Assembly (NCBI GenBank): GCA_964487475.1
Contig: CAZAPM010000005.1
Location: forward strand, 1 to 64,000
Source of the DNA: an uncultured Planctomycetales bacterium
GTDB lineage: Bacteria; Omnitrophota; Gorgyraeia; Gygaellales; Profunditerraquicolaceae
Reading direction: 5' to 3'
DNA: 64,000 nt
Shown here: in pieces, positions 19,607-41,529 of the stretch
How positions within the stretch are numbered: position 1 is the stretch's first letter
How the letters are laid out: every line of letters begins with the position of its first letter
Program-made: the position numbers and the translations under genes
The notes under the pieces: model-generated
Seen by the model: the letters and a program-made list of their open reading frames with translations, nothing else
Database searches by the model: none
What the model was told of the DNA's origin: nothing

Positions 19607-19876
19607 ATGCAATGGGATAAGCACACACAACATACTTTCGAGACCTTCATTTCTCGCATCCCGATCTTCCATCGCGCGATCACCAAGGAAACCGTGAGAA
19701 CGAAGGCTGAAGAGCTGGCCGAAGCGAGAAAAGCGGCCTTGGTCGAGGAAAAGGATGTGGTGGATGCGTTTTTTGCGGACGTTCCTTCGCCTTTTTACAG
19801 CATGATGATCCGACTGATGGAACAGACAGGCATCGATTACCGCAAATACGGCTACCCCAGAGCCTCCCGGAAATAA
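19607..19876 (+). CDS. Small PCP_red/DUF2621-like protein
   Basis: 'MQWD...RIPIFHR...KAEELA' resembles the protochlorophyllide-reductase C-terminal (PCP_red) pattern. Confidence 0.6.
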   Translation: MQWDKHTQHTFETFISRIPIFHRAITKETVRTKAEELAEARKAALVEEKDVVDAFFADVPSPFYSMMIRLMEQTGIDYRKYGYPRASRK

Positions 19877-19888
19877 CCGTCCCTACGT

Positions 19889-20896: not shown

Positions 20897-20908
20897 GAGA
20901 GGGCGGTC

Positions 20909-21523: not shown

Positions 21524-21524
21524 T

Positions 21525-22787: not shown

Positions 22788-24009
22788 GATCGCGATCACC
22801 GGTATCGGAGTGGTCTCACCCTCCGGCATAGGCAAAAGGCAGTTCTGGGCGAACATCAAGTCCGGGCGTTCTTTCATCAAGGAGATCACCCGTTTCGACG
22901 CTTCCCGCTACCCTTCGCGTATCGCCGGGCAGATCGACGACCTGGAGAAGTATTCGCACGTCTCCGAAAGGCTCCTGAAGAAGATCGACGCGTTCTCGCA
23001 CATGGCGCTGATCGCCTCCGAGATGGCGCTGCAGGATGCGGGGATCGACATCAAGCAGGAGGACCCGAACCTGGTGGGGATATTCCTCGGCAATGCCATC
23101 GGCGGGTGGCTGTATGCGGAGACCGAGCTGCGCGACCTTTATCTCGAAGGCCGCGAAGGGGTTTCCCCGTATATGGCGTCCGCCTGGTTCCCGGCCGCGC
23201 CCCAGGGGCAGGTGTCTATCTATTACGGGATCAAGGGATTTTCCAAGACGGTGGTTGCCGACCGGGCCAGCTCGCAGGAAGCGCTGGCGTATGCCAGGAA
23301 GACCCTGGCCAAGGGCAAGCTCAATATGATCCTTTCCGGAGGGATGGAGGCGCCGGTTTCTCCCTACGGGTTGCTTTGCTGCAACACTTACGGGTGCCTT
23401 TGCGAGGATAACCGCGTTCCCCAGGAAGCGTACCGTCCGTATGACCGCGCCCGCAAGGGAGTGGTGATCGGCGAGGGCGCCGGGATCGTGGTGCTGGAGA
23501 GTTCCGGCCGGGCCAAGGCCCGCGGCAAGCAGCCGTTGGCGTATATCACCGGACACGGTTCCACCTGCGACGGGTATGACCGGATCGGCTGCGATCCTTC
23601 GGGTGTGCAGCTGGCGCGCGCCATTACGCTGGCGCTCGCGGATGCCGGCCGCAAGCCCCACGAGATCGATTATGTGAGCCTCGACGGCATGGCGGTCGAG
23701 GGATGGGACAAGAGCGAGATCTCCGCCGTCACGCAGGTCTTCGGCGAGCACGCGAAACGGATGTTCGCCAGCTGTCCCAAGACCATGTTCGGGAACCTTC
23801 TGGGTGCTGCCTCGGCGCTGGACCTGATCACCGCGGTCCTGGCCATGGAGCATGAGATGGTCCCCCCGACGCTTAATCTGACCGACCCGGATATCGACGG
23901 GTTGAAGTACGTTACCGGCAAGGCCCAGGAGCATCCCGTAAAAAAGGCGCTGCTTATCTCCCGGGGCCGCGGCGGCATTAATTCGGTGTTAGTGGTAGAG
24001 AAACCTTAA
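22780..24009 (+). CDS. Type II PKS chain length factor (KS-beta/CLF)
   Basis: KS fold without the catalytic Cys; 'VSPYMASAWFPAAPQGQVSI' matches the CLF 'VSAYQSFAWF...GQISI' pattern; 'PKTMFGNL'; overlaps the KS-alpha stop. Confidence 0.88.
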   Translation: MDKIAITGIGVVSPSGIGKRQFWANIKSGRSFIKEITRFDASRYPSRIAGQIDDLEKYSHVSERLLKKIDAFSHMALIASEMALQDAGIDIKQEDPNLVGIFLGNAIGGWLYAETELRDLYLEGREGVSPYMASAWFPAAPQGQVSIYYGIKGFSKTVVADRASSQEALAYARKTLAKGKLNMILSGGMEAPVSPYGLLCCNTYGCLCEDNRVPQEAYRPYDRARKGVVIGEGAGIVVLESSGRAKARGKQPLAYITGHGSTCDGYDRIGCDPSGVQLARAITLALADAGRKPHEIDYVSLDGMAVEGWDKSEISAVTQVFGEHAKRMFASCPKTMFGNLLGAASALDLITAVLAMEHEMVPPTLNLTDPDIDGLKYVTGKAQEHPVKKALLISRGRGGINSVLVVEKP

Positions 24010-24062
24010 CACTTGGCCTGATCGGAAAGGCCAGTGTTTCGCTTTCTGCGAAAGGAGCTGTA

Positions 24063-25523
24063 ATGAAGATACTTTTTGTGATGCCGAAGGTGGGAGCATG
24101 GGCGACCCACGGGAAACATGTGGCCCCTAACCAGCTGTACGCGCACTGGGCGGCGTATGTGCGTGAAAAAGGGTACGAGGACCTCGAGGTGCTTGACTGC
24201 AAGGCGCTGGAGATGGCCGACGACCAGATGGTGGAGACGGTCAAATCCAAGAAGCCCGATGTGGTGGTGATGGGGGAACAGCTGCACTCCTACGGCGGAT
24301 ACGCGGTGGTGGCGCATTTTAACGATGCCGCCCGCAAGATCAAATCCTCCTTCCCTTCGGTCAAGATCATCTTCGGCGGATTGTGGTACTCCGCGATGCC
24401 TACCGAAACGCTGGAGGCGAACCCGGCCGTGGATTACATCGTCATGGGTGAAGAGGAGTCGTTTTACGAGCTGATCGATGCCATCGCCAGGAAGCAGGAC
24501 CTGACCAAGGTGGCCGGGGTGACGGTGCGCGTGGACGGCAAGATTTCCATGGGGCCGTACAAGCCGCTGCTGCAGGACCTGGATTCCCTGCCGCTTCCGG
24601 CGTACGATCTTTTCCCGATGGAGAAGTACGTGGGGCATACCCACTGGAAGCCCTTCGTGGATATGGTCTCCTCCCGCGGATGCCCTTCGGCATGTACCTT
24701 CTGCTACGAGTGGGACCAGTATGACCCGCGTAACCCGTCCGATTTCCTGAAGTGGCGCGCCAAGAGCCCGGAGCGGGTCATCGAAGAGCTCAACGTGCTG
24801 CATAAAAAATACGGGGTCAAAGTGGTGGTGCTGCAGGACGATAATTTCAACGTCAATCCCGAGCGGGTGAAGAAGTTCTGCGAGCTTAAGAAAGCGGCGA
24901 ACAATCCCATCAAGTGGGTGTCCCTCGGCCGCGCCGTGGACTGGATCAACTGCGAGCCGATCCTGCCCCTGATGAAGGAGACCGGCCTGTTTACCGGCGT
25001 CTTCGGGATCGAAGTGACCACTCCCGAGGAGCTCAAGAAGATCGCCAAGGGTATTACCATCGACCAGATCAAAAAGACCGTGGAGATCCTGCGCAAGCAG
25101 AACATCGCGGTGGTGGCGGATATCATGATGGGCTTTGAGTACGACACGGAAGCCATCATCAAGCAGCGCTACGAGTTTACCGATATGGTCGATCCGGATA
25201 TCCTCTGGGTAGGCTACGTGACGCCGGCGCCGAATTCTCCCATGTGGAGGATAGGGATGCAGCGCAAGTGGATCGATCCCAAGAAGATCGATTTCACCCG
25301 GTGGGATTTCCTGCATCCGGTGATGCCGACGGACCATCTGACCGTGGAGGACCTGGGCCGTCTGGGTTCCTGGTGCATGCGCGAATTCTTCTCCAAGCCC
25401 GGACGTATCAACCGGATCATGGAGAGCGATTTCGATATCCTGGCCAAGCTTTGTTTCCAGGATGTCATGGCCGGGGTCGGCAAGTGGGAAGCCGGCGCCA
25501 CCAAAGGCGAAGTTCATATCTGA
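24063..25523 (+). CDS. Cobalamin-dependent radical SAM enzyme (class B methyltransferase/BchE-like)
   Basis: N-terminal B12-binding region ('PDVVVMG...IIFGG...DYIVMGEEE'), 'SRGCPSACTFC', 'DDNF'. Confidence 0.9.
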   Translation: MKILFVMPKVGAWATHGKHVAPNQLYAHWAAYVREKGYEDLEVLDCKALEMADDQMVETVKSKKPDVVVMGEQLHSYGGYAVVAHFNDAARKIKSSFPSVKIIFGGLWYSAMPTETLEANPAVDYIVMGEEESFYELIDAIARKQDLTKVAGVTVRVDGKISMGPYKPLLQDLDSLPLPAYDLFPMEKYVGHTHWKPFVDMVSSRGCPSACTFCYEWDQYDPRNPSDFLKWRAKSPERVIEELNVLHKKYGVKVVVLQDDNFNVNPERVKKFCELKKAANNPIKWVSLGRAVDWINCEPILPLMKETGLFTGVFGIEVTTPEELKKIAKGITIDQIKKTVEILRKQNIAVVADIMMGFEYDTEAIIKQRYEFTDMVDPDILWVGYVTPAPNSPMWRIGMQRKWIDPKKIDFTRWDFLHPVMPTDHLTVEDLGRLGSWCMREFFSKPGRINRIMESDFDILAKLCFQDVMAGVGKWEAGATKGEVHI

Positions 25524-25524
25524 G

Positions 25525-25616
25525 ACGTAGGGACGGTTCTCTTTTACGGTTAGAACCGTCCCCTGTTACCGAGAATAAAAAGGGACGGTTCTGTATTTGA
25601 TCGGAGAACCGTCCCT
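25525..25616. repeat. Two tandem palindromic REP-like units GGGACGGTTCT..AGAACCGTCCC
   Basis: 11-bp IR 25530-25540/25552-25562 and 12-bp IR 25581-25592/25605-25616; the first unit begins with GTAG. Confidence 0.8.
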
Positions 25617-25629
25617 AAAAGGAGAGAAG

Positions 25630-25869
25630 ATGGATACGAAAACGAAGATAAAGGAAGTACTGGTGAAGTTGCTGAAGGTCAGGCCCGAAGAGCTCAAGGA
25701 CGGCGTCTCGCTGCAGGATTGCATCGGGGTCGATTCGACGGAAATGGTGGAATCGGTGATCGCCCTGGAAAAAGAGTTCGGCACCAAGCTTTCCCCAAAG
25801 GATATCACCAAGTTCTGTTCCATCGATGACATCGAAAAGGTGATCAGCAGTAAACTGTCCGTAAAATGA
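25630..25869 (+). CDS. Acyl carrier protein
   Basis: 79 aa; 'IGVDSTEMVE' phosphopantetheine Ser motif, 'LEKEFG'; AGGAG SD. Confidence 0.92.
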   Translation: MDTKTKIKEVLVKLLKVRPEELKDGVSLQDCIGVDSTEMVESVIALEKEFGTKLSPKDITKFCSIDDIEKVISSKLSVK

Positions 25870-26672
25870 GACTGGTAGACCTGTCGCTGCCCATTGACGA
25901 AAAAGCGTTCGAGGTCCACCGGGTAGAGATCGAACGTGTCAGCCACAAGGCGGGGGTGGAGAAGTTCAACCGCGTCATCATGGGCAAGACCTTCAAGGGC
26001 AAGGTGCAGCATCTCCTCGGCCAGCGGATCCTGAAACCTTCGGATCTCCCGGACGAGGAGTTTCTGTCTCTGGAGGTGGTGCATGCGCCGGTGCATGTCG
26101 GCACCCATCTGGATTACTCCTTCCATTACGGCTCCCGCTCCGAAGGCCGGGCTTCCCGGACCGCGGAGGAGATACCCCTGGAATGGTGTTACTGCGACGG
26201 GGTCAAGCTGGATTTCACCCATAAGAAGTCGGGTGAGGTGATCGCTGCCGCGGATATCGAGGCCGCCTTGAAGAAGATCGGATATGCGCTTAAGCCCAAG
26301 GATATCGTGCTGCTGCATACCGGGGCGGATAAATTTTACGGCTCTCCCAAGTATTTTGTCGAGTATCCGGGGGTGGACGTCTCGGCGATCGAGTATCTCC
26401 TCGACCGGGGGATCAAGATCTTCGGCACGGACACGATGGGGATCGACCGGCCCTATAAGTACATGCTGGCGGAGTTCCTGAAGACCCGCGACATATCGCG
26501 TTTTTATCCGTCCCATTTTTTCGGGAGGAAGAGGGAGTTCATCCACATCGAACGGCTGGCGCGGCTCGAACAGCTGCCGCCCACCGGGTATAAGATCATT
26601 TGTTTCCCTGTCCGGATCAAACAGACTGGCGCTGCCTGGGCGAGGGTAGTGGCAGAGTTCGCAGGAGGCTGA
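25866..26672 (+). CDS. Metal-dependent cyclase family protein (putative later-ring polyketide cyclase)
   Basis: 'HVGTHLD', 'GTDTMGID', 'HIERL'; same family as the ZhuJ/OxyN-type cyclases. Confidence 0.85.
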   Translation: MRLVDLSLPIDEKAFEVHRVEIERVSHKAGVEKFNRVIMGKTFKGKVQHLLGQRILKPSDLPDEEFLSLEVVHAPVHVGTHLDYSFHYGSRSEGRASRTAEEIPLEWCYCDGVKLDFTHKKSGEVIAAADIEAALKKIGYALKPKDIVLLHTGADKFYGSPKYFVEYPGVDVSAIEYLLDRGIKIFGTDTMGIDRPYKYMLAEFLKTRDISRFYPSHFFGRKREFIHIERLARLEQLPPTGYKIICFPVRIKQTGAAWARVVAEFAGG

Positions 26673-26673
26673 C

Positions 26674-26988
26674 ATGGCGGAAAAGGCGGTTATTCAGGAT
26701 CTAGAGAAGATGATGGAATTCCCTCGCGAAGGGGTGTTCAGCAAGGTGCTGGTCAAGACCCCTACTTCCAACCATACCCTGATGTGCCTGGCCAAGGGCA
26801 GCGACATCTCGGAGCATACTTCGACCCGGGAAGCGGCGGTGACGGTGCTCAAGGGGAAGGGTACCTTCTGGCTGGGGAGGAAGAAGATCCCCATGAAGCA
26901 GGGAACGTTCATTTTCATGCCGAAGAACGCGCCGCACGCGCTTTCTGCGAGCGAGAACCTCGCGTTCATTTTAAGCCTGAGCGGAAGG
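26674..26988 (+). CDS. Cupin domain protein (3' end falls in the scaffold gap)
   Basis: 'ISEHTS..EA..VLKGKG...FIFMPKNAPHAL'. Confidence 0.8.
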
Positions 26989-27088
26989 NNNNNNNNNNNN
27001 NNNNNNNNNNNNNNNNNNNNNNNNNNNNNNNNNNNNNNNNNNNNNNNNNNNNNNNNNNNNNNNNNNNNNNNNNNNNNNNNNNNNNNNN
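26989..27088. other. Assembly gap (100 N)
   Basis: Run of N; the round length suggests a placeholder of unknown true size. Confidence 0.99.
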
Positions 27089-27526
27089 ATGGGACATACC
27101 TGCAATTCCATCGTCATCAACGCGCCATATGAAAAGGTGTTCGACATTTCCAACGACATCCCCCGCTGGGTCGAGCTTTTCGGCGGTGAGTATAAAAAGG
27201 CCGAAGTGGTGGAGAAGAAGGATAACAAGATCACGTTCCGGCTGACCGACGACGAGGGCAAATCCTGGGTCTCCTGGCGTCTGCTCTTCAAGGATAAGTA
27301 TTTCGCCTATGCCGAGCGGCATGACCCCAAATTCCCTTTCAAGTTCATGAAGATCGTCTGGCTGTACACTCCCCGTCCCGAAGGCACCGAGTTGACCTGG
27401 ATCCAGCATTTCGAGATGGACGACAAGGCGAAGTTCAACGATGCCCAGGTGGAAGGGTTCATCAACGGGCATTCCAAGGACAACCTGAAGATCTTTAAGG
27501 ATATCATCGAGCAGGAAACCGAATAG
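27089..27526 (+). CDS. Polyketide aromatase/cyclase (SRPBCC; TcmN-N/WhiE ORFVI-like)
   Basis: 'GHTCNSIVINAP...NDIPRWVELF..EY...TFRLT...SWVSWR...PFKFMKIVWLY...WIQHFEM' closely follows the monodomain ARO/CYC pattern. Confidence 0.88.
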   Translation: MGHTCNSIVINAPYEKVFDISNDIPRWVELFGGEYKKAEVVEKKDNKITFRLTDDEGKSWVSWRLLFKDKYFAYAERHDPKFPFKFMKIVWLYTPRPEGTELTWIQHFEMDDKAKFNDAQVEGFINGHSKDNLKIFKDIIEQETE

Positions 27527-28657
27527 GTGAGGCGTACGACCTTCGTACTGCTCTGTCTTGAAGGAGGGGTGCTTTCCTTCAGCGTGGCGGCCACGGCCGC
27601 CCTGGTGCCTTCGATCGCCCGGGAGTTCGCTCTTTCGCAGTTTCTGGTGGGCGCGGCGGTGTGGCTGTATATGCTTCCCTACGGGATCTCGGCGCTGCTC
27701 TACGGGCCGCTGATCCGCCGTTGCGATGCCAAGACCGTCGAATTATGGTGTTTCGCGCTTTTTCTCGCGGCGAACGTCCTTTGCGGCCTGGCGCCTTCGA
27801 TCGAGGTGTTCCTCGCGGGACGCTTCCTGATGGGGGTTTTCGGAGCTTCCGTGATCCCGCTTGCGGTCATCCTGATCGCGCAGGAAAGCGCAGCGCAGGA
27901 GCGCGGCAAACAGGTGGGGATATTCTTCGGCGCGACCTTTACCGCTTCTTTGGCGGGATTGCTCTTAAGCGGATTGCTGCCCTGGCGGTGGAATTATCTC
28001 CTCCCCGCGGTTTTCGGGGTATTGGTGTGGATCCACATCGCCATGTATATGCCGCGTTTCCCGGTCCAGGCAGGGGATAAGGCCAGCAGGTATCTGCATG
28101 CCTTCGGCGAACGGGCGTTCCAGAGGGTATTCGCATACATCTTCCTCGTGAGCTTGATCTATCACGGGGTGCAGCAGTGGCTGGGGGTGTATTTCTCGAC
28201 ACGGTTCGGGTGGCCGCAGCTGACCATCAGCCTGCTGGTGACCCTGACCAGTTTGAGCGGGATATTCGGCGAGGTGCTGGGAGGCTTCATGGCGGACTGG
28301 CACGGCCGGCGCAGGACGATCGCGCTGGGCGCGGGATTGATGGCGGTCAGCGCGTTTTTGCTGGTCTTCCGGATGCCGGTGTGGTGTTTCGCGCTGGTCA
28401 TGCTGGCCTGGGGCGCGGGCTGGACCTTCAACCATGCCGGGGTATCGACGGTTTTGACGGATATGCCGCAGAAGCACCTGCATGAAGCGGCGAGCCTTAA
28501 CAGCAGCGTGCGTTTCCTTGCCGGAGGGTTAGGCGCGGCGTGTGCCGGATTGCTGCTGCAGCGGAGTTTTGAGACAGGATTTTTCGTGTTGGGCGCGTTG
28601 TTGCTGGCGCTCGTATGGTTAAGCGGGAAGTTCTTTCCCGCGAGCCGGACCACCTAA
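27527..28657 (+). CDS. MFS transporter (probable product exporter)
   Basis: About 12 TMs; 'YGPLIRR', 'GRFLMG', 'GFMADWHGRR'. Confidence 0.9.
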   Translation: MRRTTFVLLCLEGGVLSFSVAATAALVPSIAREFALSQFLVGAAVWLYMLPYGISALLYGPLIRRCDAKTVELWCFALFLAANVLCGLAPSIEVFLAGRFLMGVFGASVIPLAVILIAQESAAQERGKQVGIFFGATFTASLAGLLLSGLLPWRWNYLLPAVFGVLVWIHIAMYMPRFPVQAGDKASRYLHAFGERAFQRVFAYIFLVSLIYHGVQQWLGVYFSTRFGWPQLTISLLVTLTSLSGIFGEVLGGFMADWHGRRRTIALGAGLMAVSAFLLVFRMPVWCFALVMLAWGAGWTFNHAGVSTVLTDMPQKHLHEAASLNSSVRFLAGGLGAACAGLLLQRSFETGFFVLGALLLALVWLSGKFFPASRTT

Positions 28658-28670
28658 GGGAGAGGGAAAT

Positions 28671-29447
28671 ATGGAGACGGTATTGAAAGGCAAGGCGGCG
28701 ATCGTGACCGGGGCCAGCCGCGGCATAGGAAAGGCCCTGGCATCGACCGTGGCCAGTATGGGAGCGAATGTGGCCATTGCGGCAAGGCAGGAGGGCCCGT
28801 TAAAGGAGGCCGCGGAGGAGATCGCCAAAAAGTATAAGGTAGAGGTCTTGCCCGTAGTGTGCGACGTCACCAAACTCGAAGACCTGGAGAACCTGGTCAA
28901 CCAGACTAAGGCCAAGTTCGGCAAGATCGATATACTCATCAATAACGCCGGGGTTTCCAGCCAGTATCCCTTCCCGCACCAGCCGATCGAGGAGATCGAG
29001 AAGCTCGCGCTGACCAATTACCTGGGGTATGTCCGCCTGATCCGATTGGTGATCAACGATATGATCGCGCGTAAATCCGGCGCCATCATCAATATGGTCT
29101 CGGGCTCGACCTTAGTTGACCCCGTTCCAAAAAATTTCGTGGTGTACAGCTCGTTGAAAGTCGGGCTGCGCGCGTTCTGCAAGGGGCTTTTCTGGGAACA
29201 GCGCGACAACGGGATCAAGATCACCTCGCTTCTGCCCGGGGTCACCGATACCGATCTGACGGGCAAGCTCAAGGATATCACCAACGATACTTCCCGCCTC
29301 ATGACCACCGAGGCGATCGAGAACGCGGTGCGTTTCGCCCTGACCGTGCCGGCGAACGTCTGCCCGCTGGAGATCTCCGTCATCAATCAGCAGACGCCCT
29401 GGACCGCGCCCATCATCCCGTACAAGCAGGCGCATCCGGATAAATGA
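28671..29447 (+). CDS. SDR family oxidoreductase (candidate ketoreductase)
   Basis: 'TGASRGIG', 'NNAG', 'YSSLK'. Confidence 0.92.
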   Translation: METVLKGKAAIVTGASRGIGKALASTVASMGANVAIAARQEGPLKEAAEEIAKKYKVEVLPVVCDVTKLEDLENLVNQTKAKFGKIDILINNAGVSSQYPFPHQPIEEIEKLALTNYLGYVRLIRLVINDMIARKSGAIINMVSGSTLVDPVPKNFVVYSSLKVGLRAFCKGLFWEQRDNGIKITSLLPGVTDTDLTGKLKDITNDTSRLMTTEAIENAVRFALTVPANVCPLEISVINQQTPWTAPIIPYKQAHPDK

Positions 29448-29845
29448 GCATGAACGCACAGGATAAGAAGAACATCCAGAAACGGTACCTGATCTGGTTC
29501 TATAAGTCGGCCAAAGAAGCCTTCGATAAGGTCGAGCGCAAGTTCACCCAGGCGGAGGTGGACCTGGAAGTGCTCGCCCGCCTGAAGCGTTTTGACCGAA
29601 GCGGCAGGCTGCGCAAGGAGCTCGCCGGATTCGAGGAGTATATCGACAAGAAGCTTTCCGCCGGCAAGGAGCTGAAATTCGCCGGCCGGGGTACCTTGAA
29701 GAACGAGTATATCTTCCTGGCGGCAAAACTCGATGCGGTGGAGAAGGTCATCGCGAAGCGTTTCGGCCCCGGGGAGCTTTCCCGGATCAAGCGGATGTAC
29801 GAGCAGGAGATGACCTCCCGTATTTTACGGAGCACCGAGCATTAG
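29444..29845 (+). CDS. Hypothetical helical protein
   Basis: ATGA-coupled ORF within the operon; no family recognised. Confidence 0.7.
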   Translation: MSMNAQDKKNIQKRYLIWFYKSAKEAFDKVERKFTQAEVDLEVLARLKRFDRSGRLRKELAGFEEYIDKKLSAGKELKFAGRGTLKNEYIFLAAKLDAVEKVIAKRFGPGELSRIKRMYEQEMTSRILRSTEH

Positions 29846-29848
29846 CCT

Positions 29849-30769
29849 ATGATCATCGACGCGCATTCTCACTGGCTTCCGGCACAGATCATTGAGAACG
29901 CCCATTTCTATCATAAGGGATGGGGGGATATAGAAGCACAGGTCAAGATGATGCGGGAGTCGGGTATCGACAAGGCGGTGTTATCCTATCCTACCTCTGA
30001 TGCACATCATAAGCTCGGTACGCAGGGAGAGGTGGCGCGGATATTCAACGATGCGGTCGCCAACATCCTGCGCAAGTATCCCGATACGTTCATCGGCGCG
30101 GCGGTGATGCCGGTGGGGGATGCGGCAGTGATGCTCGACGAGGCTAAGCGCGCTACGGAAAAGATGGGGTTCCGGGCGATCTCCCTGGCCACGAGCTATG
30201 ACGGGGTGTATCTGGATGACGCGCAGTTCACCCCGCTTTTCAAGTTCTGCCGTCAGATGCGCCTGCCGGTGTTCGTGCATGCGCAGATCGTTAATCCCAT
30301 CGGATCGGACAGGGTCAAGGACCCTTTGCTTACCCCGGTCATCGAATATGTGTTTGAAACTACCATGTGCGTGGGCCGGCTCCTCATGTCGGATATCCTG
30401 CGGGAATCCGAAGGCCTTAATTTCGTGTTCGGGTATTTCGGCGGAGTGACCCCGTTTCTGGCGCACCGGTATGACGCGACCTACCGGATGCTGCGGGGGA
30501 TCAATTTCGTGAAGGACCTGCAGGCGGATCCGACGCAGTTCCTGAAGCGTATTTATGTCGATACCAGCGGGGATACTACCCGCGCCAACCTGGAGGCGGC
30601 GCTCGCGCTTTTCGGGCCGGAGCATATCCTCTGGGGCAGCGACTGGCCGGCGAAGAAGGACGGCGCCGGTTCGATGGATGCGATCAGGGGCCTGGCGATC
30701 CCGGAGGAGGGAAAGGCCGGGATATTGGGGGAGAATGCGTTGCGGCTGTTCCAGGGTGGTCAAGAATGA
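29849..30769 (+). CDS. Amidohydrolase_2 family protein (ACMSD/aromatic acid decarboxylase-like)
   Basis: 'IIDAHSH', 'PVFVH', 'IYVDTS', 'ILWGSDWP', 'ILGENA'. Confidence 0.88.
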   Translation: MIIDAHSHWLPAQIIENAHFYHKGWGDIEAQVKMMRESGIDKAVLSYPTSDAHHKLGTQGEVARIFNDAVANILRKYPDTFIGAAVMPVGDAAVMLDEAKRATEKMGFRAISLATSYDGVYLDDAQFTPLFKFCRQMRLPVFVHAQIVNPIGSDRVKDPLLTPVIEYVFETTMCVGRLLMSDILRESEGLNFVFGYFGGVTPFLAHRYDATYRMLRGINFVKDLQADPTQFLKRIYVDTSGDTTRANLEAALALFGPEHILWGSDWPAKKDGAGSMDAIRGLAIPEEGKAGILGENALRLFQGGQE

Positions 30770-33540: not shown

Positions 33541-33553
33541 TAAGGAGACCGAG

Positions 33554-34300
33554 ATGCAGATGCAGAAGGAAGTTCATTTGACGGGCAAGGATCTGGTAGG
33601 AATGGTGCAGCTTCGTCCGCAGGACGTGGGACAGTATGCGATCGTCCCCGGGCCGAAGGACAGGCTGGAAGTGCTGTTGAAGAAGATACAGGATCCGGTA
33701 CGCAATTTCTCCTTCATGGAATATACGATGTATACCGGCACGTACCAGGGGATCAAGGTCACCGGGATCAACGGCGGCCGTTTTTCGACGGATACTTCGA
33801 TCACCTCCGAGGTCATCTGCAACGCCGGGATCAAGAACGTCATCCGTATCGGTTCCTGCGGCGCCATGGACGAGAAGATCAAGGTGGGAGACCTGGTCCT
33901 GGTGGATACCGTGATCCGCGGCGACGGGGTAACGCCCTATTACGTGAAACCCGACTTTAAGACCGTGGCGGACAAGCAGATCACCGACACCCTTTTCGAG
34001 GTGGCCCAGGGGATGGGGCTTACCGTGCACCGGGGCACGGCCTGGACTACAGATGCGCTGCTTAAGGAGACCCGCGAGATAGTCGAAGCTAAGCGCAAGG
34101 AGGGCGCCATTGCGGTGGATATGGTCTCCTCGACGCTGTTGACCATCGCGCAGCTGTACAACGTCAAAGCCGGATCGATCCTGGCGGTCAGCGACAACCT
34201 GATCACCGGTGAGATGGGGTTCATGAACCCGCTTTATTACATGGCGGAAACCAACCTCATTACAATCGCCTTGGAAACCGTCAAGCGCCTGAACGCATGA
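33554..34300 (+). CDS. Nucleoside phosphorylase (PNP/UDP family 1)
   Basis: TAAGGAG SD; 'IRIGSCGA', 'WTTDA', 'AVDMVSS', 'AVSDNL'. Confidence 0.88.
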   Translation: MQMQKEVHLTGKDLVGMVQLRPQDVGQYAIVPGPKDRLEVLLKKIQDPVRNFSFMEYTMYTGTYQGIKVTGINGGRFSTDTSITSEVICNAGIKNVIRIGSCGAMDEKIKVGDLVLVDTVIRGDGVTPYYVKPDFKTVADKQITDTLFEVAQGMGLTVHRGTAWTTDALLKETREIVEAKRKEGAIAVDMVSSTLLTIAQLYNVKAGSILAVSDNLITGEMGFMNPLYYMAETNLITIALETVKRLNA

Positions 34301-35235
34301 AGCCGTTTTCCCCGCTCTTCTGGCCGATACGATACCAGCAGGGAGTGATCTCCATTCTCGACGAGACGCTTCTGCCGCATCAGGTGGTCTATATCGAAGC
34401 TCCCGATCACGCGGCAGCGTGCCGGGCGATCCGGGAGATGAAGACGCGCGCCGTGGGCCAGGTGCTGCTGGTGATGTATATTTTCATCCAGCTGATCGAC
34501 CGGCATCAGGGCAATGTCCCCTCCGAGCTGCTGGAAAAAGTGGCGCAGGAGATCAACGCCACCCGGCCGACGCTTTCCTTTAAGTATCTTACCGATATGG
34601 TCCTGGGGTGGGCCAGGCAGGGGGCTCCTCTGTCCCAGGCCATCAACGGGTTCCTGGAAGGGCTTAAACACGCCCGCCTGGCGCAGGCGAAAGAAGCGGC
34701 CGCGCTGCTTAAGGACGGGGATGCCGTCCTTACGCATTGTAACATCAGCGGGCTGATGCCGGTGATCGCGGGATTTGCCGCGGAGCAGGGGAAGGCGGTC
34801 AGGTTTTTTGCGACCGAGACCCGGCCGTACCTGCAGGGGTCGCGGCTCACCGCCTGGGAATTGCACGAAGCGGGTTTTGACGTGACGGTGATCGCGGACG
34901 GGATGGCAGCACAGGTCATGGCCGAAGGAAAGATCTCCAAGGTCATCGTCGGGGCGGATCATCTGGCGCAAAACGGTGATATCGCCAACAAGATCGGCAC
35001 GCTGCAGATCGCCCTGGCAGCCAGGCATTTCGGGATCCCTTTTTACGTGATCTGTCCGCCTGCGTCCAGGGCGCAAAGCGGCAAGGATATCGCCATCGAG
35101 GTCCGTCCGGAGGATGAATTGCTTGTGATCAACGGGGTGCGTACCACCTCCGCGGGGGTCAAGGGTTATTATCCGGCGTTCGACGTGACGCCGGCCGAGT
35201 TAATCACCGGGCATATCAAGCTGGGGGTGCGTTGA
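34297..35235 (+). CDS. mtnA: Methylthioribose-/5-deoxyribose-1-phosphate isomerase-like protein (MtnA family, divergent)
   Basis: 'LTHCN', 'ETRPYLQGSRLTAWEL', 'NGDIANKIGT', 'PAFDVTPAELITG'. Confidence 0.82.
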   Translation: MKPFSPLFWPIRYQQGVISILDETLLPHQVVYIEAPDHAAACRAIREMKTRAVGQVLLVMYIFIQLIDRHQGNVPSELLEKVAQEINATRPTLSFKYLTDMVLGWARQGAPLSQAINGFLEGLKHARLAQAKEAAALLKDGDAVLTHCNISGLMPVIAGFAAEQGKAVRFFATETRPYLQGSRLTAWELHEAGFDVTVIADGMAAQVMAEGKISKVIVGADHLAQNGDIANKIGTLQIALAARHFGIPFYVICPPASRAQSGKDIAIEVRPEDELLVINGVRTTSAGVKGYYPAFDVTPAELITGHIKLGVR

Positions 35236-36251
35236 TGGCTGATCAACTGCAGGCGTGCAAGGAAGCGATCAAGATCACGGGGAAAAGGCTCTACTCCTCG
35301 GGCCTGGCCGTGGCCCGTTCGGGGAATATCAGCTGCCGCCTGGACGACGCGCAGGTCCTCATCACCGCCACCGGCACGTACCTGGGGGAGCTTTCCGACC
35401 AGGATATCGTGCGGGTCGATCTCGCCGCCGGCCTTTGCCTGGATGCGAAAAAGCCGAGCTCCGAACTTCCCCTGCATTCCCTCGTCTACAAGAATTTCCC
35501 GGCGAAGGTCGTGGTGCACTGCCATCCGCCCCTGGCCAACGGTTATTTTTCGGTCAATGATTCCCTGGAGGCCTGCACGTTCGAGACCAGATTCTATTTA
35601 GGCAGGGTTCCGGTGGTGGCGCAGGAGACGCCGACGGTTACTCGACCGGAGGCAGTGATCGATGCGCTCAAGGCCAACAGCCTGGTAGTGCTCAAGCACC
35701 ACGGCGCGGTCGCCATGGGAGAGACCTTTGACGAGGCTATGGCGCTGGTCGAAGCGCTCGAGGAAGCGGTCAAATCCGCCTGCGTGGCGCGCCTTTTCTC
35801 CGTAGGGGGTCAGCTTTCCGCTCCGGCAAATGCTGCCGGGTCTTTCTCCGGGGCCCGGACGGGTTCCGGATCCGGAGGGATGAAGATGTTCTCTCCGGAG
35901 CATATCCAGGCGATCGTGGACCTGGTCAACCAGGATGAGCTGATCGCCCGGAAAGGCAGCGAGCTCGACCTGACCGTGCAGCTGGCGATTTGTCTCGACG
36001 GAAGCGACGATAAGTACAAGTTCAATTTTGAAAAGGGCAAGATCGTGCGCCTGGACCGGGACGCCGATGCGCCTTTTGTCATCTCTGCTCCGGCCGCGGT
36101 GTGGGAGCAGGTATTCTTAGGAAAGCTGGATTCTTTTGTCGCGGTCACTCAGGGAAAGATGAGCCTCAAGGGCCAGTTGGGGCAGCTTTCCAAGTGGTAC
36201 GTGCCCTTCACCAGGCTTTTCGAGCTTTTCAAGCAGGTCCCCATACGGTAA
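35232..36251 (+). CDS. Class II aldolase/adducin domain fused to an SCP2 sterol-carrier domain
   Basis: 'SGNISCR', 'PSSELPLH', 'VVHCHP', 'LKHHGA'; C-terminal 'FVISAPAAVW...GKLDSFVAVTQGKMSLKG' is SCP2-like. Confidence 0.85.
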   Translation: MMADQLQACKEAIKITGKRLYSSGLAVARSGNISCRLDDAQVLITATGTYLGELSDQDIVRVDLAAGLCLDAKKPSSELPLHSLVYKNFPAKVVVHCHPPLANGYFSVNDSLEACTFETRFYLGRVPVVAQETPTVTRPEAVIDALKANSLVVLKHHGAVAMGETFDEAMALVEALEEAVKSACVARLFSVGGQLSAPANAAGSFSGARTGSGSGGMKMFSPEHIQAIVDLVNQDELIARKGSELDLTVQLAICLDGSDDKYKFNFEKGKIVRLDRDADAPFVISAPAAVWEQVFLGKLDSFVAVTQGKMSLKGQLGQLSKWYVPFTRLFELFKQVPIR

Positions 36252-36254
36252 CAC

Positions 36255-37742
36255 ATGAAAACATCCTACCCCGCGTATATCGACGGAGCGTTCGTGGAGG
36301 GAGTCTCTTTGCGCCGCGCGCTCGATCCGGCAACGGGTGAGCCGGTCGCGGATGCCGCCTGGCTTTCTCGTGAACAGCTGCTTCAGGCGCTGGCAGGCGC
36401 ACGCCGCGCCGCGGATGAAGGCCCCTGGCGCGCAATCTCATTGAGAGAGCGCAAGGAGTTCCTGCTGCGCATCAGCCGCGGGATACTGGAGCGGGCAGGG
36501 GAGCTCGCGATGCTCGAGACCCTCAATACCGGCAAGCCGCTGAAGGAATCCACCTTCATGGATATCCCTTCCGCTGCCAAAACCTTCGAGCATTTCGCCC
36601 TTCATCTCGAGGAGTACCTGCAGGAGGAATCTCTGCGGCCGGTGGCGCACGCCCAAGGCACGCTAATCCGCCAGCCGCGGGGAGTGGCCCTTCTGATCGT
36701 CCCCTGGAATTATCCTTTGATCATCGCTTCCTGGAAGATGGCATCCGCGCTGGCAGCCGGCAATACGGTGATCCTCAAGCCCTCCAGCCTTACCCCCCTG
36801 ACCGCGCTTGCGTTAGCGGAGATCGTTCACTCCTGCGGCCTGCCTCCGGGTGTCGTGCAGGTCGTCAATGCTTCCGGAGAGGATGTTCAGGAGTGCCTGT
36901 GTGCGGACGCGCGGGTGGACATGATCTCTTTTACCGGCGGGAACGAAGTCGGACGTAAGATCATCGCCTCCAGCGCGCCGCAGGTCAAAAAACTGGTGAT
37001 GGAACTGGGAGGGAAATCCGCGTCCTTAGTCCTGGCGGATGCCGATCTCGAGCTGGCGGTCAACGGCTCCCTTTGTTCGATCTTCCTTAATCAGGGGCAG
37101 ATGTGCACGGCGATGTCCCGTATCTTCGTGCAGGAGAAGGTGTATGAGCCTTTCCTGAAAGATTTTGCCGCGAAAGCTTCCCGGATCGTGCTGGGGAAAG
37201 GGATCGACGCGCAGACCCAGATGGGCCCGCTGATCTCGCGGGAGCAGAGGGAGAGGGTCCAGGCGTTCGTGGCTCAGGCCCAAAAAGAAGGGGCGAAGGT
37301 GGTTTGCGGAGGATGCGTTCCGCGATCGCCGGAACTGGCAAAGGGGTTTTTCTTCGAGCCTACGGTCCTCTCGGGGGTGACGTCCCAAATGCAGGCGTTC
37401 CGGGAGGAGGTGTTCGGCCCGGTGGTGTGCGTGGGGAAGTTCTCGACGATAGAAGAAGGTATTGCCCTGGCGAACGCCTCGGAGTTCGGATTGGCCAGTT
37501 GCGTGTGGAGCGCGAACACGCATGCCGCGGAGGAGATCGGCCGGCGCATCGATGCCGGCCTGACGTGGATCAACACCTACGGGATGTTCTATGACGCGCT
37601 TTCCTACGGAGGGTTCAAGCAAAGCGGCTTCGGCTATGAGCTTGGCCGCGCAGGGTTCCTCGAGTATACCCGCCTTAAAACGATCGTCACCGACCGTACC
37701 GAGGGCGCCAAGCCTTTGGTCAACTACTGGTACGGATTCTAG
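36255..37742 (+). CDS. NAD(P)-dependent aldehyde dehydrogenase
   Basis: 'VPWNYP', 'FTGG', 'MELGGKS', 'NQGQMC', 'EEVFGPV', 'GGFKQSG'. Confidence 0.95.
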   Translation: MKTSYPAYIDGAFVEGVSLRRALDPATGEPVADAAWLSREQLLQALAGARRAADEGPWRAISLRERKEFLLRISRGILERAGELAMLETLNTGKPLKESTFMDIPSAAKTFEHFALHLEEYLQEESLRPVAHAQGTLIRQPRGVALLIVPWNYPLIIASWKMASALAAGNTVILKPSSLTPLTALALAEIVHSCGLPPGVVQVVNASGEDVQECLCADARVDMISFTGGNEVGRKIIASSAPQVKKLVMELGGKSASLVLADADLELAVNGSLCSIFLNQGQMCTAMSRIFVQEKVYEPFLKDFAAKASRIVLGKGIDAQTQMGPLISREQRERVQAFVAQAQKEGAKVVCGGCVPRSPELAKGFFFEPTVLSGVTSQMQAFREEVFGPVVCVGKFSTIEEGIALANASEFGLASCVWSANTHAAEEIGRRIDAGLTWINTYGMFYDALSYGGFKQSGFGYELGRAGFLEYTRLKTIVTDRTEGAKPLVNYWYGF

Positions 37743-39989: not shown

Positions 39990-40019
39990 TTGACAGTGCC
40001 CGTTGGGTGCGGGTACAAT
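39990..40019 (+). promoter_or_regulatory. sigma70 promoter, probable leaderless transcript
   Basis: TTGACA-N18-TACAAT ending 7 nt before ATG 40027; no SD. Confidence 0.6.
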
Positions 40020-40026
40020 TCAGCAT

Positions 40027-41529
40027 ATGGATGTCATTTCACTGCTTACACAAAGAGCGAAGGAATCTGCCGATAAGCCGGCGTTCGTTTCCCGGGAGGG
40101 GGTGCTGACCTTTGCCCATCTTCGGGACAGGGTCTTCTCCGCCTGCGAGGGGCTGCGGGAACTCGGGGTCAAAAAGGGCGACCGGGTCGCGTTGTACCTT
40201 CCGACGTGGACCGAGTATGTCATCAGCTACCTGGCGGTCTGGTGTTGCCAGGCTACGGCCGTGCCCCTGGATTTCATGTTGACCTCCGACGAGCTTGAGT
40301 CCTGCATCAGGCATTGCGAAGCCTCCGTGCTCATCGCCAAGCCCAAGGCCTCGGTTTCCCTGTCCGAGCTTAAGTCCCGTTGCGCCAGCCTTACCGCGGT
40401 GGTTTCCTGCGAGCACGGGGCGGAAGAGGAGCGGGGGCTGGTGTTCTCCCGGCTGCTGGAGCATGCTCCGGCGCGCCTGCAGGGGGCGGCGGATCCGAAG
40501 GCTACCGCCATAATCTTCTATACTTCCGGCACCACCGGCAAGCCCAAGGGGGTGCTTATCAACTACCGGCAATTGAGCGCCCCTCCGGAGGCGATGAAGC
40601 ATTTCGTGGATTTGACGGAGAAGGACGTGACGGTCTGCGCGCTGCCCTTTTCCCATCTGGGCGGGCTTATCTATATCCAGAACTGCCTTTCTTTCGGGAT
40701 GACCGTGGTGCTGATGGAGCGGTTCATCCCCCTGGAATTCCTTAAGCTGGTCTCCCAGCACCGGGCCACGTGTTTCTGGATCGTGCCTTCCATGTATTAC
40801 GCCATGCTGCAGCTCAAGGAGTTCGAGACCTTCGACCTTTCCTCCCTGCGTTGGATCGTCACCTTCGGGGCTTCCAATTCACCCGATGCGCTGCGCCGGT
40901 TCCAGCAGTATTGTCCTCAGGCGCATCTTCTGAACGGATGGGGGTTGACGGAGACCAATGCGCCTACTACCGTCATCCCGCTGGGCTCGAAGAAGATCGA
41001 AAGCGTAGGCCGTCCTGCGCCCTGGGTCGAGGTCAAAGTGTTCGGTGACGACGGGGGGGAAGTTCCCGTCTCCGGCGTGGGGGAAGTGGCGGTACGCGGC
41101 TGGGTGGTGACCGAAGGGTATTATAAGGACCCGGCGTTGACCTCCGAAACGATCCGCAAAGGATGGTTCTATACCGGGGACCTGGGCCGGTTCGATGCCG
41201 AAGGGGACCTTTACATCGTCGGCAGAAAAAAGGAGATGATCAAGGTCGCCGGGGAGATCGTCTTCGAGCCGGAGGTGGAGGCGGCCATTCACCGCCATCC
41301 TGACGTGGCGGAAGCCGCCGTCGTCGGGGTGCCGGATAAGATGCGCGGCGAGGTGCCGAAGGCCTTTGTCGCCTGCAAGGAGGGCAAGTCCCTTTCCGAG
41401 GAGGACCTGCGCGCGTTCCTGCGCCAGTCCCTCGCGCATTTCAAGGTCCCGCATTATTTTGTGTTCCTGCCGTCATTGCCTAAGAACCGCACCGGCAAAG
41501 TGGATAAAGCGCAGCTGCGCGCAGGGTAG
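40027..41529 (+). CDS. Acyl-CoA ligase (class I adenylate-forming enzyme)
   Basis: 'YTSGTTGKPKG', 'GWGLTET', 'YTGDLG', 'GRKKEMI', 'LPKNRTGKVDK'. Confidence 0.93.
   Translation: MDVISLLTQRAKESADKPAFVSREGVLTFAHLRDRVFSACEGLRELGVKKGDRVALYLPTWTEYVISYLAVWCCQATAVPLDFMLTSDELESCIRHCEASVLIAKPKASVSLSELKSRCASLTAVVSCEHGAEEERGLVFSRLLEHAPARLQGAADPKATAIIFYTSGTTGKPKGVLINYRQLSAPPEAMKHFVDLTEKDVTVCALPFSHLGGLIYIQNCLSFGMTVVLMERFIPLEFLKLVSQHRATCFWIVPSMYYAMLQLKEFETFDLSSLRWIVTFGASNSPDALRRFQQYCPQAHLLNGWGLTETNAPTTVIPLGSKKIESVGRPAPWVEVKVFGDDGGEVPVSGVGEVAVRGWVVTEGYYKDPALTSETIRKGWFYTGDLGRFDAEGDLYIVGRKKEMIKVAGEIVFEPEVEAAIHRHPDVAEAAVVGVPDKMRGEVPKAFVACKEGKSLSEEDLRAFLRQSLAHFKVPHYFVFLPSLPKNRTGKVDKAQLRAG

Follow-up and report, generated by a model that had tools for sequence, protein, structure and literature searches.

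A phosphorylase-isomerase-aldolase-dehydrogenase module is a fixed part of a polyketide synthase and radical SAM gene cluster in uncultured Omnitrophota and may form an extended DHAP shunt

The window, the whole stretch of 64,000 nucleotides analysed here, belongs to a Candidatus Omnitrophota MAG with a size of 1.87 Mb and a completeness of 94.6%. Four genes on its forward strand encode a phosphorylase with the hexameric NP-I (PNP/UDP) fold that belongs to a divergent clade (33554..34300, 248 aa; Pfam PNP_UDP_1, 8.5e-35), an MtnA-like sugar-1-phosphate isomerase of the IF-2B family (34297..35235, 312 aa; Pfam IF-2B, 5.5e-57), a class II (Zn) aldolase with an SCP2 lipid-carrier domain fused to it (35235..36251, 338 aa; Pfam Aldolase_II, 7.8e-36, and SCP2) and an NAD(P)-dependent, non-acylating aldehyde dehydrogenase (ALDH; 36255..37742, 495 aa; Pfam Aldedh, 6.1e-157). 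The genes are tightly coupled: the first two share an ATGA overlap (34297-34300), the aldolase ATG at 35235 begins on the last base of the isomerase stop codon (35233-35235), and three bases separate the aldolase TAA (36249-36251) from the ALDH ATG at 36255. The Pfam matches and these junctions bear out the earlier note, which had placed four coupled genes at 33554-37742; all four are real and their coordinates are right. For the phosphorylase, the ATG at 33554, which has an AAGGAG ribosome-binding site in front, is preferable to the longer TTG frame from 33467. A fifth module gene, assigned by synteny, encodes a FadD-like acyl-CoA ligase (40003..41529, forward strand; Pfam AMP-binding, 2.4e-84) and is separated from the ALDH gene by two inserted SPFH genes. 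Neither the SCP2 domain nor the membership of this ligase gene had been noticed in the earlier note. A gene for a B12-binding radical SAM enzyme (24063..25523, forward strand; Pfam B12-binding and Radical_SAM), one of 71 radical SAM matches in the genome, lies upstream. The remaining conserved cluster genes (19607..30769, forward strand; Pfam and NCBIfam), whose order and content are kept in relatives, encode DUF2621, an ApbA-like reductase, a TIGR04076 protein, KS-alpha, KS-beta, an ACP and a PF04199 cyclase, followed by a cupin, an SRPBCC cyclase, an MFS protein, an SDR ketoreductase, a 133-aa protein and Amidohydro_2.

Comparison with NCBIfam equivalogs showed that the phosphorylase scores far below all of their cut-offs, among them those for uridine phosphorylase (119 bits, cut-off 280), DeoD (96 bits, cut-off 232) and MTAP (25 bits, cut-off 275); its scores against HpnG and futalosine hydrolase were 47 bits (cut-off 187) and 27 bits. 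Its AF2 model (pLDDT 91.8) matched E. coli PNP 1ecp_A with a Z score of 31.6 over 234 residues, the fold being equally close to DeoD-type PNPs and adenosine phosphorylases (Z ~31). G33, R37, R98, S101 and S213-D214 are retained, and counterparts of DeoD R43, E181 and R217 are missing. The ribose-diol Glu is replaced by Val191 in 16 of 16 phosphorylases and one phosphate Arg is also absent, suggesting a non-canonical sugar recognition. Structural range alignments and a phmmer alignment placed residues 14-17 (LVGM) at the His4/His8 site which binds the 5'-OH in PNP/Udp enzymes. Identity to the orthologues, found in 28 of 28 clusters, is 42-84%. The earlier note had named an enzyme acting only on uridine as fatal to its reading; the phosphorylase is not of the uridine type, as the uracil-binding Gln166/Arg168 insert known from E. 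coli Udp is missing and the purine-type Ser-Asp pair is kept.

The isomerase, the second MtnA-like copy in the genome, scores above the cut-off of TIGR00524 (203.9, cut-off 185.85) and below that of the equivalog TIGR00512 (231.5, cut-off 279). In an alignment with B. subtilis MtnA (2yvk), its Cys148 and Asp221 occupy the positions of the catalytic Cys and Asp. Relative to the genome's housekeeping MtnA, the clade of this isomerase lacks 7 residues following the Cys loop. The aldolase is the sole PF00596 match in the genome, which encodes no other class II aldolase; all 18 aldolase sequences compared share E77, H95, H97 and H156, and the match to the ribulose-1-phosphate aldolase family NF053831 is weak (63 bits, cut-off 300). 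In the AF2 model of the fusion (pLDDT 87), a disordered linker joins an aldolase part (residues 1-190) close to T. thermophilus FucA (Z 25.6) and B. thuringiensis DrdA (6btd, TM 0.81) to an SCP2 part (residues 216-336) close to 2cx7_B (Z 17.3, rmsd 1.8, 119 residues). The C-terminal SCP2 match reached 22.9 bits in Pfam (cut-off 21.3), and the domain is present in all 29 aldolase orthologues obtained, with a mean pairwise identity of 52% against 46% in the aldolase domain and 13% in the linker (18 aligned). In the model, the linker leaves the aldolase at the place of the FucA C-terminal tail, which has a role at the aldehyde site.

Betaine-aldehyde and phenylacetaldehyde dehydrogenases are the nearest solved relatives of the ALDH (~1e-105), with the ELGGK and GQMC motifs aligned, and with the relatives' cluster ALDH as query the module ALDH was the sole match in the genome at E <= 1e-20. 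The ligase is the reciprocal best hit of the relatives' module ligase, whose gene lies immediately after the ALDH gene or immediately before the phosphorylase gene and was found in 52 of the 64 related loci having at least 3.6 kb downstream. It is FadD-like, of ~500 aa, with FadD5, oxalate-CoA ligase and feruloyl-CoA ligase as nearest solved relatives; its A5 motif reads WG(L/M)TE in 22 of 22 sequences, with Gly at the position of the Trp that acts as a gate in acetyl-CoA synthetases. The B12-radical SAM enzyme, conserved in 27 of 28 related clusters, gave its best NCBIfam match to BchE (217 bits, cut-off 481) and the next to HpnJ, and its solved relatives are all distant (AprD4, 3.5e-18); it is presumed to be the source of the module's nucleoside substrate. 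In all 29 KS-beta sequences compared, the residue matching the KS-alpha cysteine is Arg or Lys and not Gln. As Gln at this position denotes priming by malonyl-ACP decarboxylation, such priming is doubtful here and an acyl-CoA starter is plausible.

Orthologues of the four module proteins, 34-84% identical, were found in all 28 related clusters examined (ALDH in 26), so the gene set is not due to chance. A phylum survey covered 200 sampled genomes, with 80 further loci beside them. The fused aldolase was present in each of the 32 sampled genomes with a KS-beta orthologue, on the same contig in 28 of them at a spacing of 6-12 kb, and PKS genes were present in 45 of 45 further related loci having at least 6 kb upstream. 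Across the 200 genomes and 80 loci the module was never found apart from the PKS/radical SAM cluster, and in the sampled genomes it was never lost where the PKS is present. This association persists although gene order varies between families. In genome G195 the order is ligase, B12-radical SAM enzyme, phosphorylase, isomerase, aldolase and ALDH, the radical SAM gene thus lying inside the module, and the aromatic-PKS tailoring genes are missing, yet module and radical SAM gene stay together. Family f14 has an MMPL/LolA-like/DUF1302 lipid-export set within or next to the module. Window genes outside the cluster set had no match in the relatives' 20-kb loci. The module is a fixed part of a PKS and radical SAM gene cluster in uncultured Omnitrophota, and the dedicated link proposed in the earlier note, which independent occurrence in relatives would have contradicted, is supported because the module was never found away from the cluster in the genomes and loci surveyed.

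At other places the genome encodes a canonical MTAP, which scores 302 bits against a cut-off of 274.85, and a canonical MtnA (416 bits, cut-off 279), so the module is not housekeeping salvage. Of 201 phylum genomes, 165 have an MtnA above the cut-off and only 39 have the aldolase, so ordinary disposal needs no module. In E. coli, according to the available text of PMC10986504, a nucleosidase suffices against 5'-deoxyadenosine toxicity and the rest of the shunt is dispensable.

The explanation we favour, tentatively and at somewhat less than even confidence, is that the five genes form a cluster-dedicated extended DHAP shunt converting 5'-deoxyadenosine from the B12-radical SAM enzyme to adenine, DHAP and acetyl-CoA. 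We infer all substrates and products and the direction of flow. The phosphorylase would convert the purine nucleoside and phosphate to 5-deoxyribose-1-phosphate, the MtnA-like isomerase would yield 5-deoxyribulose-1-phosphate, and the Zn aldolase would split this into DHAP and acetaldehyde. The dehydrogenase would oxidise the aldehyde to the acid and the ligase would form the CoA thioester, which could re-enter the polyketide synthase as starter or, once carboxylated, extender. The earlier note's equation of the enzyme series with the DHAP shunt holds in reaction types, with isomerase Cys148/Asp221, aldolase E77/H95/H97/H156 and phosphorylase R37, R98, S101 and S213-D214 kept. The note had further proposed either inhibitor removal with recovery of acetate or supply of a substituted C2 acid as starter; return of the acid to the PKS is favoured over mere inhibitor removal because an adjacent acyl-CoA ligase is conserved and the priming Gln is absent from KS-beta. 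The strict link to the cluster, the LVGM residues at the 5'-OH site and the 71 radical SAM matches in a genome with a single class II aldolase also speak for the 5'-deoxyadenosine shunt. Nine distinct related contigs carry, between the aldolase and ALDH genes or right after the latter, genes for a Tdh-like Zn dehydrogenase and for a thiolase of the LsrF type (NF006081, 356 bits, cut-off 297). C4 oxidation of 5-deoxyribulose-1-phosphate gives exactly the substrate of LsrF, whose products are DHAP and acetyl-CoA (PMC7828210, available part); the cassette would thus lead in parallel to the end products proposed for the module, which argues for a methyl-ended (5-deoxy) sugar. Against the 5'-deoxyadenosine shunt stand the conserved SCP2 domain, which has no use for acetaldehyde and whose role the shunt does not explain, a ligase apparently not of the acetate type, the probably non-canonical sugar recognition of the phosphorylase, the f14 lipid-export set, and the housekeeping MTAP and MtnA together with the sufficiency of a nucleosidase in E. 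coli. Literature searches found no published description of the module; if the explanation is true, it is a new form of a known salvage route, ending in a sugar phosphate of glycolysis and a two-carbon acid in activated form.

In a bolder alternative, the radical SAM enzyme or another cluster protein would put the 5'-deoxyadenosyl group of SAM on a lipophilic intermediate of polyketide or fatty nature. From this adduct the module would take off adenine and three ribose carbons (as DHAP) and turn the remaining two-carbon arm into an acid and a CoA ester, with SCP2 holding the greasy part. PNP_UDP_1-family enzymes strip the base from C5'-linked adenosine in the HpnH/HpnG (hopanoid side chain) and MqnE/MqnB (futalosine) pairs, and the genuine, strongly conserved SCP2 domain, the exit of its linker at the FucA-tail position, the open gate of the FadD-like ligase, the divergence of phosphorylase and isomerase from housekeeping paralogues, the lipid exporters of f14 and the lack of module loss where the PKS is present all fit. 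However, we know of no adenosylating B12-binding radical SAM enzyme, the HpnG similarity is weak, no acceptor molecule can be named, and the relatives' LsrF-type gene, which passes its equivalog cut-off, belongs to an enzyme with a methyl-ended substrate; we regard this alternative as unlikely, at perhaps half the weight of the shunt. Less probable still is starter supply from another 5'-substituted adenosine, the substituted C2 acid of the earlier note, for example from MTA to 2-(methylthio)acetyl-CoA. The DHAP shunt also converts MTA, to 2-methylthioacetaldehyde (PMC10986504, in its accessible part), and a ligase that is not of the acetate-specific type and a KS-beta without Gln speak for it; but MTA is already served by the canonical MTAP and MtnA, the cluster has no MTA-forming enzyme in its Pfam/NCBIfam annotation, and no fluorinase/chlorinase family match was found in the genome.

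We give little credence to ordinary purine nucleoside catabolism with an accidental cluster location, in which adenosine or inosine would pass through ribose-1-phosphate and ribulose-1-phosphate to DHAP and glycolaldehyde, and on to glycolate. The fold's equal nearness to DeoD-type PNPs and adenosine phosphorylases and the weak NF053831 match agree with it, but the co-occurrence with the cluster is strict across several gene-order rearrangements, the 5'-OH contact place has no His, the ribose-diol Glu is lost, and SCP2 and ligase are left without a role. A fluorometabolite route from 5'-fluoro-5'-deoxyadenosine to fluoroacetate or fluoroacetyl-CoA, the parallel drawn in the earlier note, is close to refuted. 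Its last four steps use the same enzyme types, and the phosphorylase gene is immediately preceded by the fluoride channel gene crcB and DUF190 in 13 distinct related contigs; a search for a fluoride riboswitch there gave nothing at gathering score. This crcB is the relatives' single copy and most simply housekeeping, the window's own genome has it on a different contig, an exporter would oppose fluoride use, and no SAM_HAT (PF01887) match exists in the 94.6%-complete genome.

Among known systems, the Streptomyces cattleya fluoroacetate pathway comprises fluorinase, 5'-FDA phosphorylase, isomerase, aldolase and aldehyde dehydrogenase, and its four post-fluorinase steps, the final ALDH included, match the module in enzyme type; its phosphorylase is MTAP-like, unlike that of the module, whose genome has no fluorinase-family gene. 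As in HpnH/HpnG, which act on a lipid, and MqnE/MqnB, a PNP_UDP_1-family enzyme would take the base off a nucleoside made by the radical SAM enzyme of the same pathway, although similarity is weak (HpnG 47 bits, futalosine hydrolase 27 bits) and the hopanoid and futalosine pathways, which lack an isomerase/aldolase/ALDH series, retain the ribose carbons. With LsrF of autoinducer-2 degradation, the module shares its proposed end products, DHAP and acetyl-CoA (PMC7828210, available part); an LsrF-equivalog gene lies in the modules of the 9 related contigs, whereas searches of the window and its genome found no LsrF-type gene. The isomerase and aldolase steps resemble DrdK-DrdI-DrdA, the 5-deoxyribose disposal route of Bacillus thuringiensis (aldolase model close to DrdA 6btd/6btg, TM ~0.8), but that route, in the accessible portion of PMC6079011, begins at the free sugar with a kinase and includes no ALDH, ligase or SCP2. 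The DHAP shunt exists as Pfs-MtnK-MtnA-Ald2 in E. coli ExPEC and as the MtnP variant, MtnP-MtnA-Ald2, in Rhodospirillum rubrum and Rhodopseudomonas palustris (PMC10986504, available text), the latter converting 5'-deoxyadenosine to adenine, DHAP and acetaldehyde (also PMC6079011, in part). The module shares with the MtnP variant the sequence of reaction types: the base is removed to leave a sugar-1-phosphate, an IF-2B-family enzyme carries out the aldose-ketose isomerisation, and a class II Zn aldolase releases DHAP and an aldehyde. It differs in that its phosphorylase is of the hexameric PNP/Udp branch and not of the MTAP family, its isomerase, which bears a loop deletion, scores too low for the MtnA equivalog, its aldolase is fused to SCP2, ALDH and acyl-CoA ligase steps are added, and it is embedded in a type II PKS/B12-radical SAM cluster and coexists with housekeeping MTAP and MtnA.

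The window belongs to a genome of 1.87 Mb (G000; 36 contigs, 94.6% complete), and the named relatives of its proteins were all Candidatus Omnitrophota MAGs; the same stretch was represented in seven DNA data sets from three studies (wastewater, biogas fermenter and sludge), with no RNA data set among those listed. A co-directional row of genes occupies 19607-37742 on the + strand. It begins at 19607 with genes for a DUF2621 protein, an ApbA-like reductase, a TIGR04076 protein, KS-alpha, KS-beta and the B12-binding radical SAM enzyme (24063..25523), continues with an ACP, a PF04199 cyclase, a cupin, an SRPBCC cyclase, an MFS protein, an SDR, a 133-aa protein and an Amidohydro_2 protein, and closes with three family-less genes (30766-33540) and the four module genes, which extend to 37742. 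These four genes (phosphorylase, MtnA-like isomerase, class II aldolase and ALDH; 33554-37742, +) had been described from the sequence as a coupled set, and both points held: the Pfam E-values of 8.5e-35 to 6.1e-157 leave them genuine, and they are closely coupled, the first two junctions being overlaps (ATGA, then a single base) and the third a spacer of three bases. The phosphorylase start proposed in the earlier note, 33554, is preceded by a good ribosome-binding site.

Twenty-nine related regions were compared with the full set of cluster proteins encoded in the window. The three genes at 30766-33540 (+), encoding 593 aa, 102 aa (weak match to a Cys-rich zinc finger) and 221 aa (weak match to a PHB-depolymerase-type esterase), had no counterpart among these 29 regions. 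Relatives differ in what occupies the spot between the Amidohydro_2 and phosphorylase genes: crcB and DUF190 genes, a nucleotidyltransferase/HEPN pair (region L007) or, in L015, an additional radical SAM/SPASM gene. The crcB and DUF190 genes lie directly upstream of the phosphorylase gene at L005:12934-13649 and on 12 further distinct contigs, all from part of the window's own family, and this crcB is the sole one of those genomes. The crcB of G000 is on a different contig from the module (C7:107522-107860), DUF190 was not found in G000, and no fluoride riboswitch reached the gathering score in the window, L005, L006, L007 or L009. In a protein-atlas search, the matches of the TIGR04076 protein were confined to its own Omnitrophota clusters. 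Beside the cluster, at 42442-48267 in the window and L032:5917-12034 in the distant relative G195, stand an RlmN-like radical SAM gene and a trio of FIST, histidine kinase and response regulator-GGDEF genes. Further along, a c-di-GMP-I riboswitch (57811-57910, +; 44.8 bits, gathering 35) has on one side a 518-aa ORF whose match to a transposase HTH is weak, and on the other Flp/Tad pilus genes (T2SSF 58941-60704). The genome as a whole has 71 radical SAM matches in its 1.87 Mb, about 22 of them in one row outside the window (C1:92000-126500).

The AF2 model of the phosphorylase (P0001, 33554-34300; pLDDT 91.8) has the hexameric NP-I fold and aligned with E. coli PNP (1ecp_A) at Z 31.6 over 234 residues. 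Since PNP, Udp, adenosine phosphorylase and the archaeal hexameric MTAP all gave Z values of 30.7-32.3, the fold is unable to tell these enzymes apart. All NCBIfam models remained far under their cut-offs, and the protein is a member of no named family: it scored 25.2 bits on the MtnP (MTAP family) model TIGR01694 (cut-off 274.85), 50 bits on the MTA/SAH nucleosidase model (cut-off 169), 95.6 bits on the DeoD-type model TIGR00107 (cut-off 232) and 119 bits on the uridine phosphorylase model TIGR01718 (cut-off 280.3). The cluster contains no kinase of the kind that an MtnN plus MtnK variant would need. Orthologues are 'hypothetical' at NCBI and named uridine phosphorylase by one source; alignment with E. 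coli Udp showed that the Udp-specific insert with the uracil-binding Gln166 and Arg168 is absent.

In E. coli DeoD we take R24, R43 (inter-subunit), R87 and S90 to form the phosphate site, E181 to bind the ribose, and D204 and R217 to bind the base. Alignment with DeoD and Udp showed that the phosphorylase keeps G33, R37, R98, S101 and the purine-type pair S213-D214, whereas M55 replaces R43, V191 replaces E181 and L227 replaces R217; V191 at the place of the ribose-diol Glu is shared by all 16 clade members. By phmmer and fold ranges, which are preferred here over MAFFT, the place of the 5'-OH-binding His4/His8 corresponds to residues 14-17 of the phosphorylase (LVGM), whereas MAFFT instead pairs its invariant His8 with the Udp N-terminus. 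As this His8 belongs to an N-terminal extension modelled at low confidence, the point is suggestive only and not firm.

The isomerase passes the subfamily model TIGR00524 (203.9 bits, cut-off 185.85) and lies under the MtnA equivalog TIGR00512 (231.5 bits, cut-off 279). Its Cys148 and Asp221 align with the catalytic Cys and Asp of B. subtilis MtnA, as in MtnA/DrdI-type enzymes, and compared to the housekeeping MtnA of G000 it has a 7-residue deletion beside the Cys loop and a shorter C-terminus. The aldolase is of class II, with the Zn-site residues H95, H97 and H156 and the catalytic E77 invariant in 18 of 18 sequences; its catalytic domain matched the folds of FucA (Z 25.6) and DrdA (TM 0.81), and it reached none of the NCBIfam aldolase equivalogs (best 115 bits, cut-off 203). 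A disordered linker of 22 residues leads to a second domain, residues 216-336, which aligned with 2cx7_B at Z 17.3 (rmsd 1.8, 119 residues aligned) and with human, yeast and mosquito SCP2 at Z 8-10; Pfam SCP2 scored 22.9 bits (cut-off 21.3). The modelled C-terminal domain is a genuine SCP2 fold, with ligand binding only putative. Mean pairwise identity was 52% for SCP2, 46% for the aldolase domain and 13% for the linker; on this measure the SCP2 domain is conserved at least as well as the catalytic domain.

The ALDH is predicted to be an ordinary hydrolytic aldehyde dehydrogenase. A fifth gene, encoding a FadD-like acyl-CoA ligase (window orthologue 40003-41529, reciprocal best hit), always adjoins the module in relatives: in the window's own family it follows ALDH, in five other families it precedes the phosphorylase gene, and in two further families ligase and phosphorylase genes sit together at the far cluster end. 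In its motif WG(L/M)TE, all 22 sequences carry Gly at the place where acetyl-CoA synthetases have the Trp gate for acetate. Between ALDH and ligase the window holds two SPFH/Band-7 genes (37739-39964, -), which were found at this place in none of the 29 related regions; the ALDH/SPFH and SPFH/ligase junctions are both bridged by independent contigs from runs of two other studies. An apparent contig joint from 36604 to 41343 was disregarded because its shorter side comprises only 21 letters.

The co-occurrence of the module with the cluster was determined in an even sample of 200 genomes of the phylum. The full-length fused aldolase was present in 34 of them (four more had an unfused aldolase domain only), and a KS-beta orthologue (≥55% identity, E ≤ 4e-143, separated by a clear gap from FabF-like matches at ≤40% identity) in 32. 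All 32 KS-beta genomes had the fused aldolase, 28 of them on the same contig at a distance of 6-12 kb, the other four being fragmented assemblies. Two genomes, G007 (78% complete) and G195, had the fused aldolase without a KS-beta orthologue. Full clusters contained phosphorylase, isomerase and aldolase in 28 of 28 cases and ALDH in 26. A one-genome-per-species collection yielded 392 stretches encoding the aldolase-SCP2 fusion, the best 80 of which came only from Omnitrophota-type MAGs, some labelled Planctomycetales. Among these best 80, PKS-type genes were found in every one of the 45 loci whose upstream sequence reaches 6 kb or more, which supports the tie between module and PKS that the earlier note had proposed to check by co-occurrence; the phosphorylase gene was found in 47 of 57 loci and the ligase in 52 of 64. 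At least seven of the 80 stretches are contigs already among the fetched regions, and kin are not independent. The association of module and cluster has persisted through several reshufflings of gene order, and few accessory gene sets of its Omnitrophota lineage are as well conserved as the cluster. Around the unfused aldolase genes of three genomes without the cluster (G179, G151 and G169), about 10 kb of sequence contained neither module nor PKS genes, which rules these aldolase genes out as free-standing module copies. At the G195 locus, where the cyclases and the ketoreductase are missing, module, ligase and B12-radical SAM gene occur together, so the radical enzyme seems to be the module's most faithful partner.

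Canonical MTAP and MtnA genes, both above their equivalog cut-offs, are located on two other contigs of G000 (C3 and C11, respectively). MtnA was above cut-off in 165 of 201 sampled phylum genomes, with two copies in cluster-bearing genomes, and G000 has no class II aldolase besides the fused one. The module is not the housekeeping salvage of the cell.

The KS-alpha motif TGC was found in 28 of 28 sequences, and an ACP is present. Where KS-alpha has its catalytic Cys, KS-beta (22780-24009, +) carries Arg (27) or Lys (2) in all 29 sequences, and lacks the Gln that actinomycete chain-length factors have there; this makes a supplied acyl-CoA starter for the PKS plausible. One published catalogue (PMC10132072) does no more than name Ca. 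Omnitrophica as one of the phyla with KS-CLF pairs.

Gene content in relatives provided clues to the substrate. A cassette of an LsrF-equivalog thiolase and a threonine-dehydrogenase-like Zn dehydrogenase, absent from G000, was found in nine distinct related contigs (L009:15101-16931, L013, L031, L033, L067, L085, L087, L095 and L116), either between the aldolase and ALDH genes or right after ALDH. Oxidation of 5-deoxyribulose-1-phosphate at C4 would give 3-hydroxy-5-phosphonooxypentane-2,4-dione, the LsrF substrate, which LsrF converts with CoA to DHAP and acetyl-CoA (PMC7828210). The cassette may offer 5-deoxyribulose-1-P another path to the same two products, and is a clue to a plain 5-deoxy sugar as substrate. 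Clues to a larger, greasy substrate are the conservation of SCP2, the Gly motif of the ligase and a lipid-export-type set of MMPL transporter, LolA-like protein and DUF1302 protein in one family of loci, f14 (L032:12311-16973 and L121:1814-6856). This trio lies 3' of ALDH in G195; in G059 it separates the aldolase gene from the ALDH gene and has IS200-like transposase genes at its flanks.

We tentatively favour, at somewhat less than an even chance, a cluster-dedicated extended DHAP shunt in which 5'-deoxyadenosine from the B12-radical SAM enzyme would be converted to DHAP and acetyl-CoA. The mere removal of an inhibitor, one of the roles suggested earlier, is unlikely: only the base-removing step relieves 5'-deoxyadenosine toxicity in E. 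coli (PMC10986504), and a housekeeping MTAP is present. That all five genes have been kept suggests that what the module makes matters. The main rival, adenosyl trimming of a lipophilic intermediate, accounts better than the 5'-deoxyadenosine reading for SCP2, for the kind of ligase and for the exporters, but requires chemistry for which no precedent is known in the B12-radical SAM class, and we regard it as unlikely. Under it the ribose of SAM would, doubtfully, serve as a building block: a radical enzyme of the cluster would add 5'-deoxyadenosyl to a lipophilic polyketide or lipid, and the SCP2-bearing module, derived from the DHAP shunt, would trim the adenosine to a two-carbon carboxymethyl arm activated as a CoA ester.

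Starters derived from MTA are improbable, and ordinary nucleoside catabolism is a weaker possibility still, to which we give very little credence. The parallel with the fluoroacetate pathway drawn in the earlier note was not supported: no match to the SAM_HAT (PF01887) fluorinase family was found in the 94.6% complete genome G000, in a search whose control matched 8 of 14 known genomes, and the fluoro route is thereby nearly excluded.

If the extended shunt on 5'-deoxyadenosine is correct, it would be the first salvage route for a SAM by-product inside a biosynthetic cluster, carried to a CoA thioester, and would show how small-genome, radical-SAM-rich organisms close the carbon balance of radical chemistry. 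Adenosyl trimming, if true, would imply a new logic of carbon-carbon extension, a new means of lengthening a carbon skeleton, widespread in Omnitrophota. Either way, the fusion occurs in 392 stretches of a one-genome-per-species collection, in a phylum without cultured representatives, and the five module enzymes are small, soluble and amenable to in vitro work.

Literature on Omnitrophota polyketides, the DHAP shunt and deoxyadenosine starter units, taken without supplements, yielded neither a DHAP-shunt-type module tied to a polyketide cluster nor a description of the aldolase-SCP2 fusion. Among known systems, the MtnP variant of the DHAP shunt and the Bacillus 5-deoxyribose pathway come closest. 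The module described here is set apart by the lineage of its phosphorylase, the fusion of its aldolase to SCP2, two added steps and its place inside a type II PKS/B12-radical SAM cluster.
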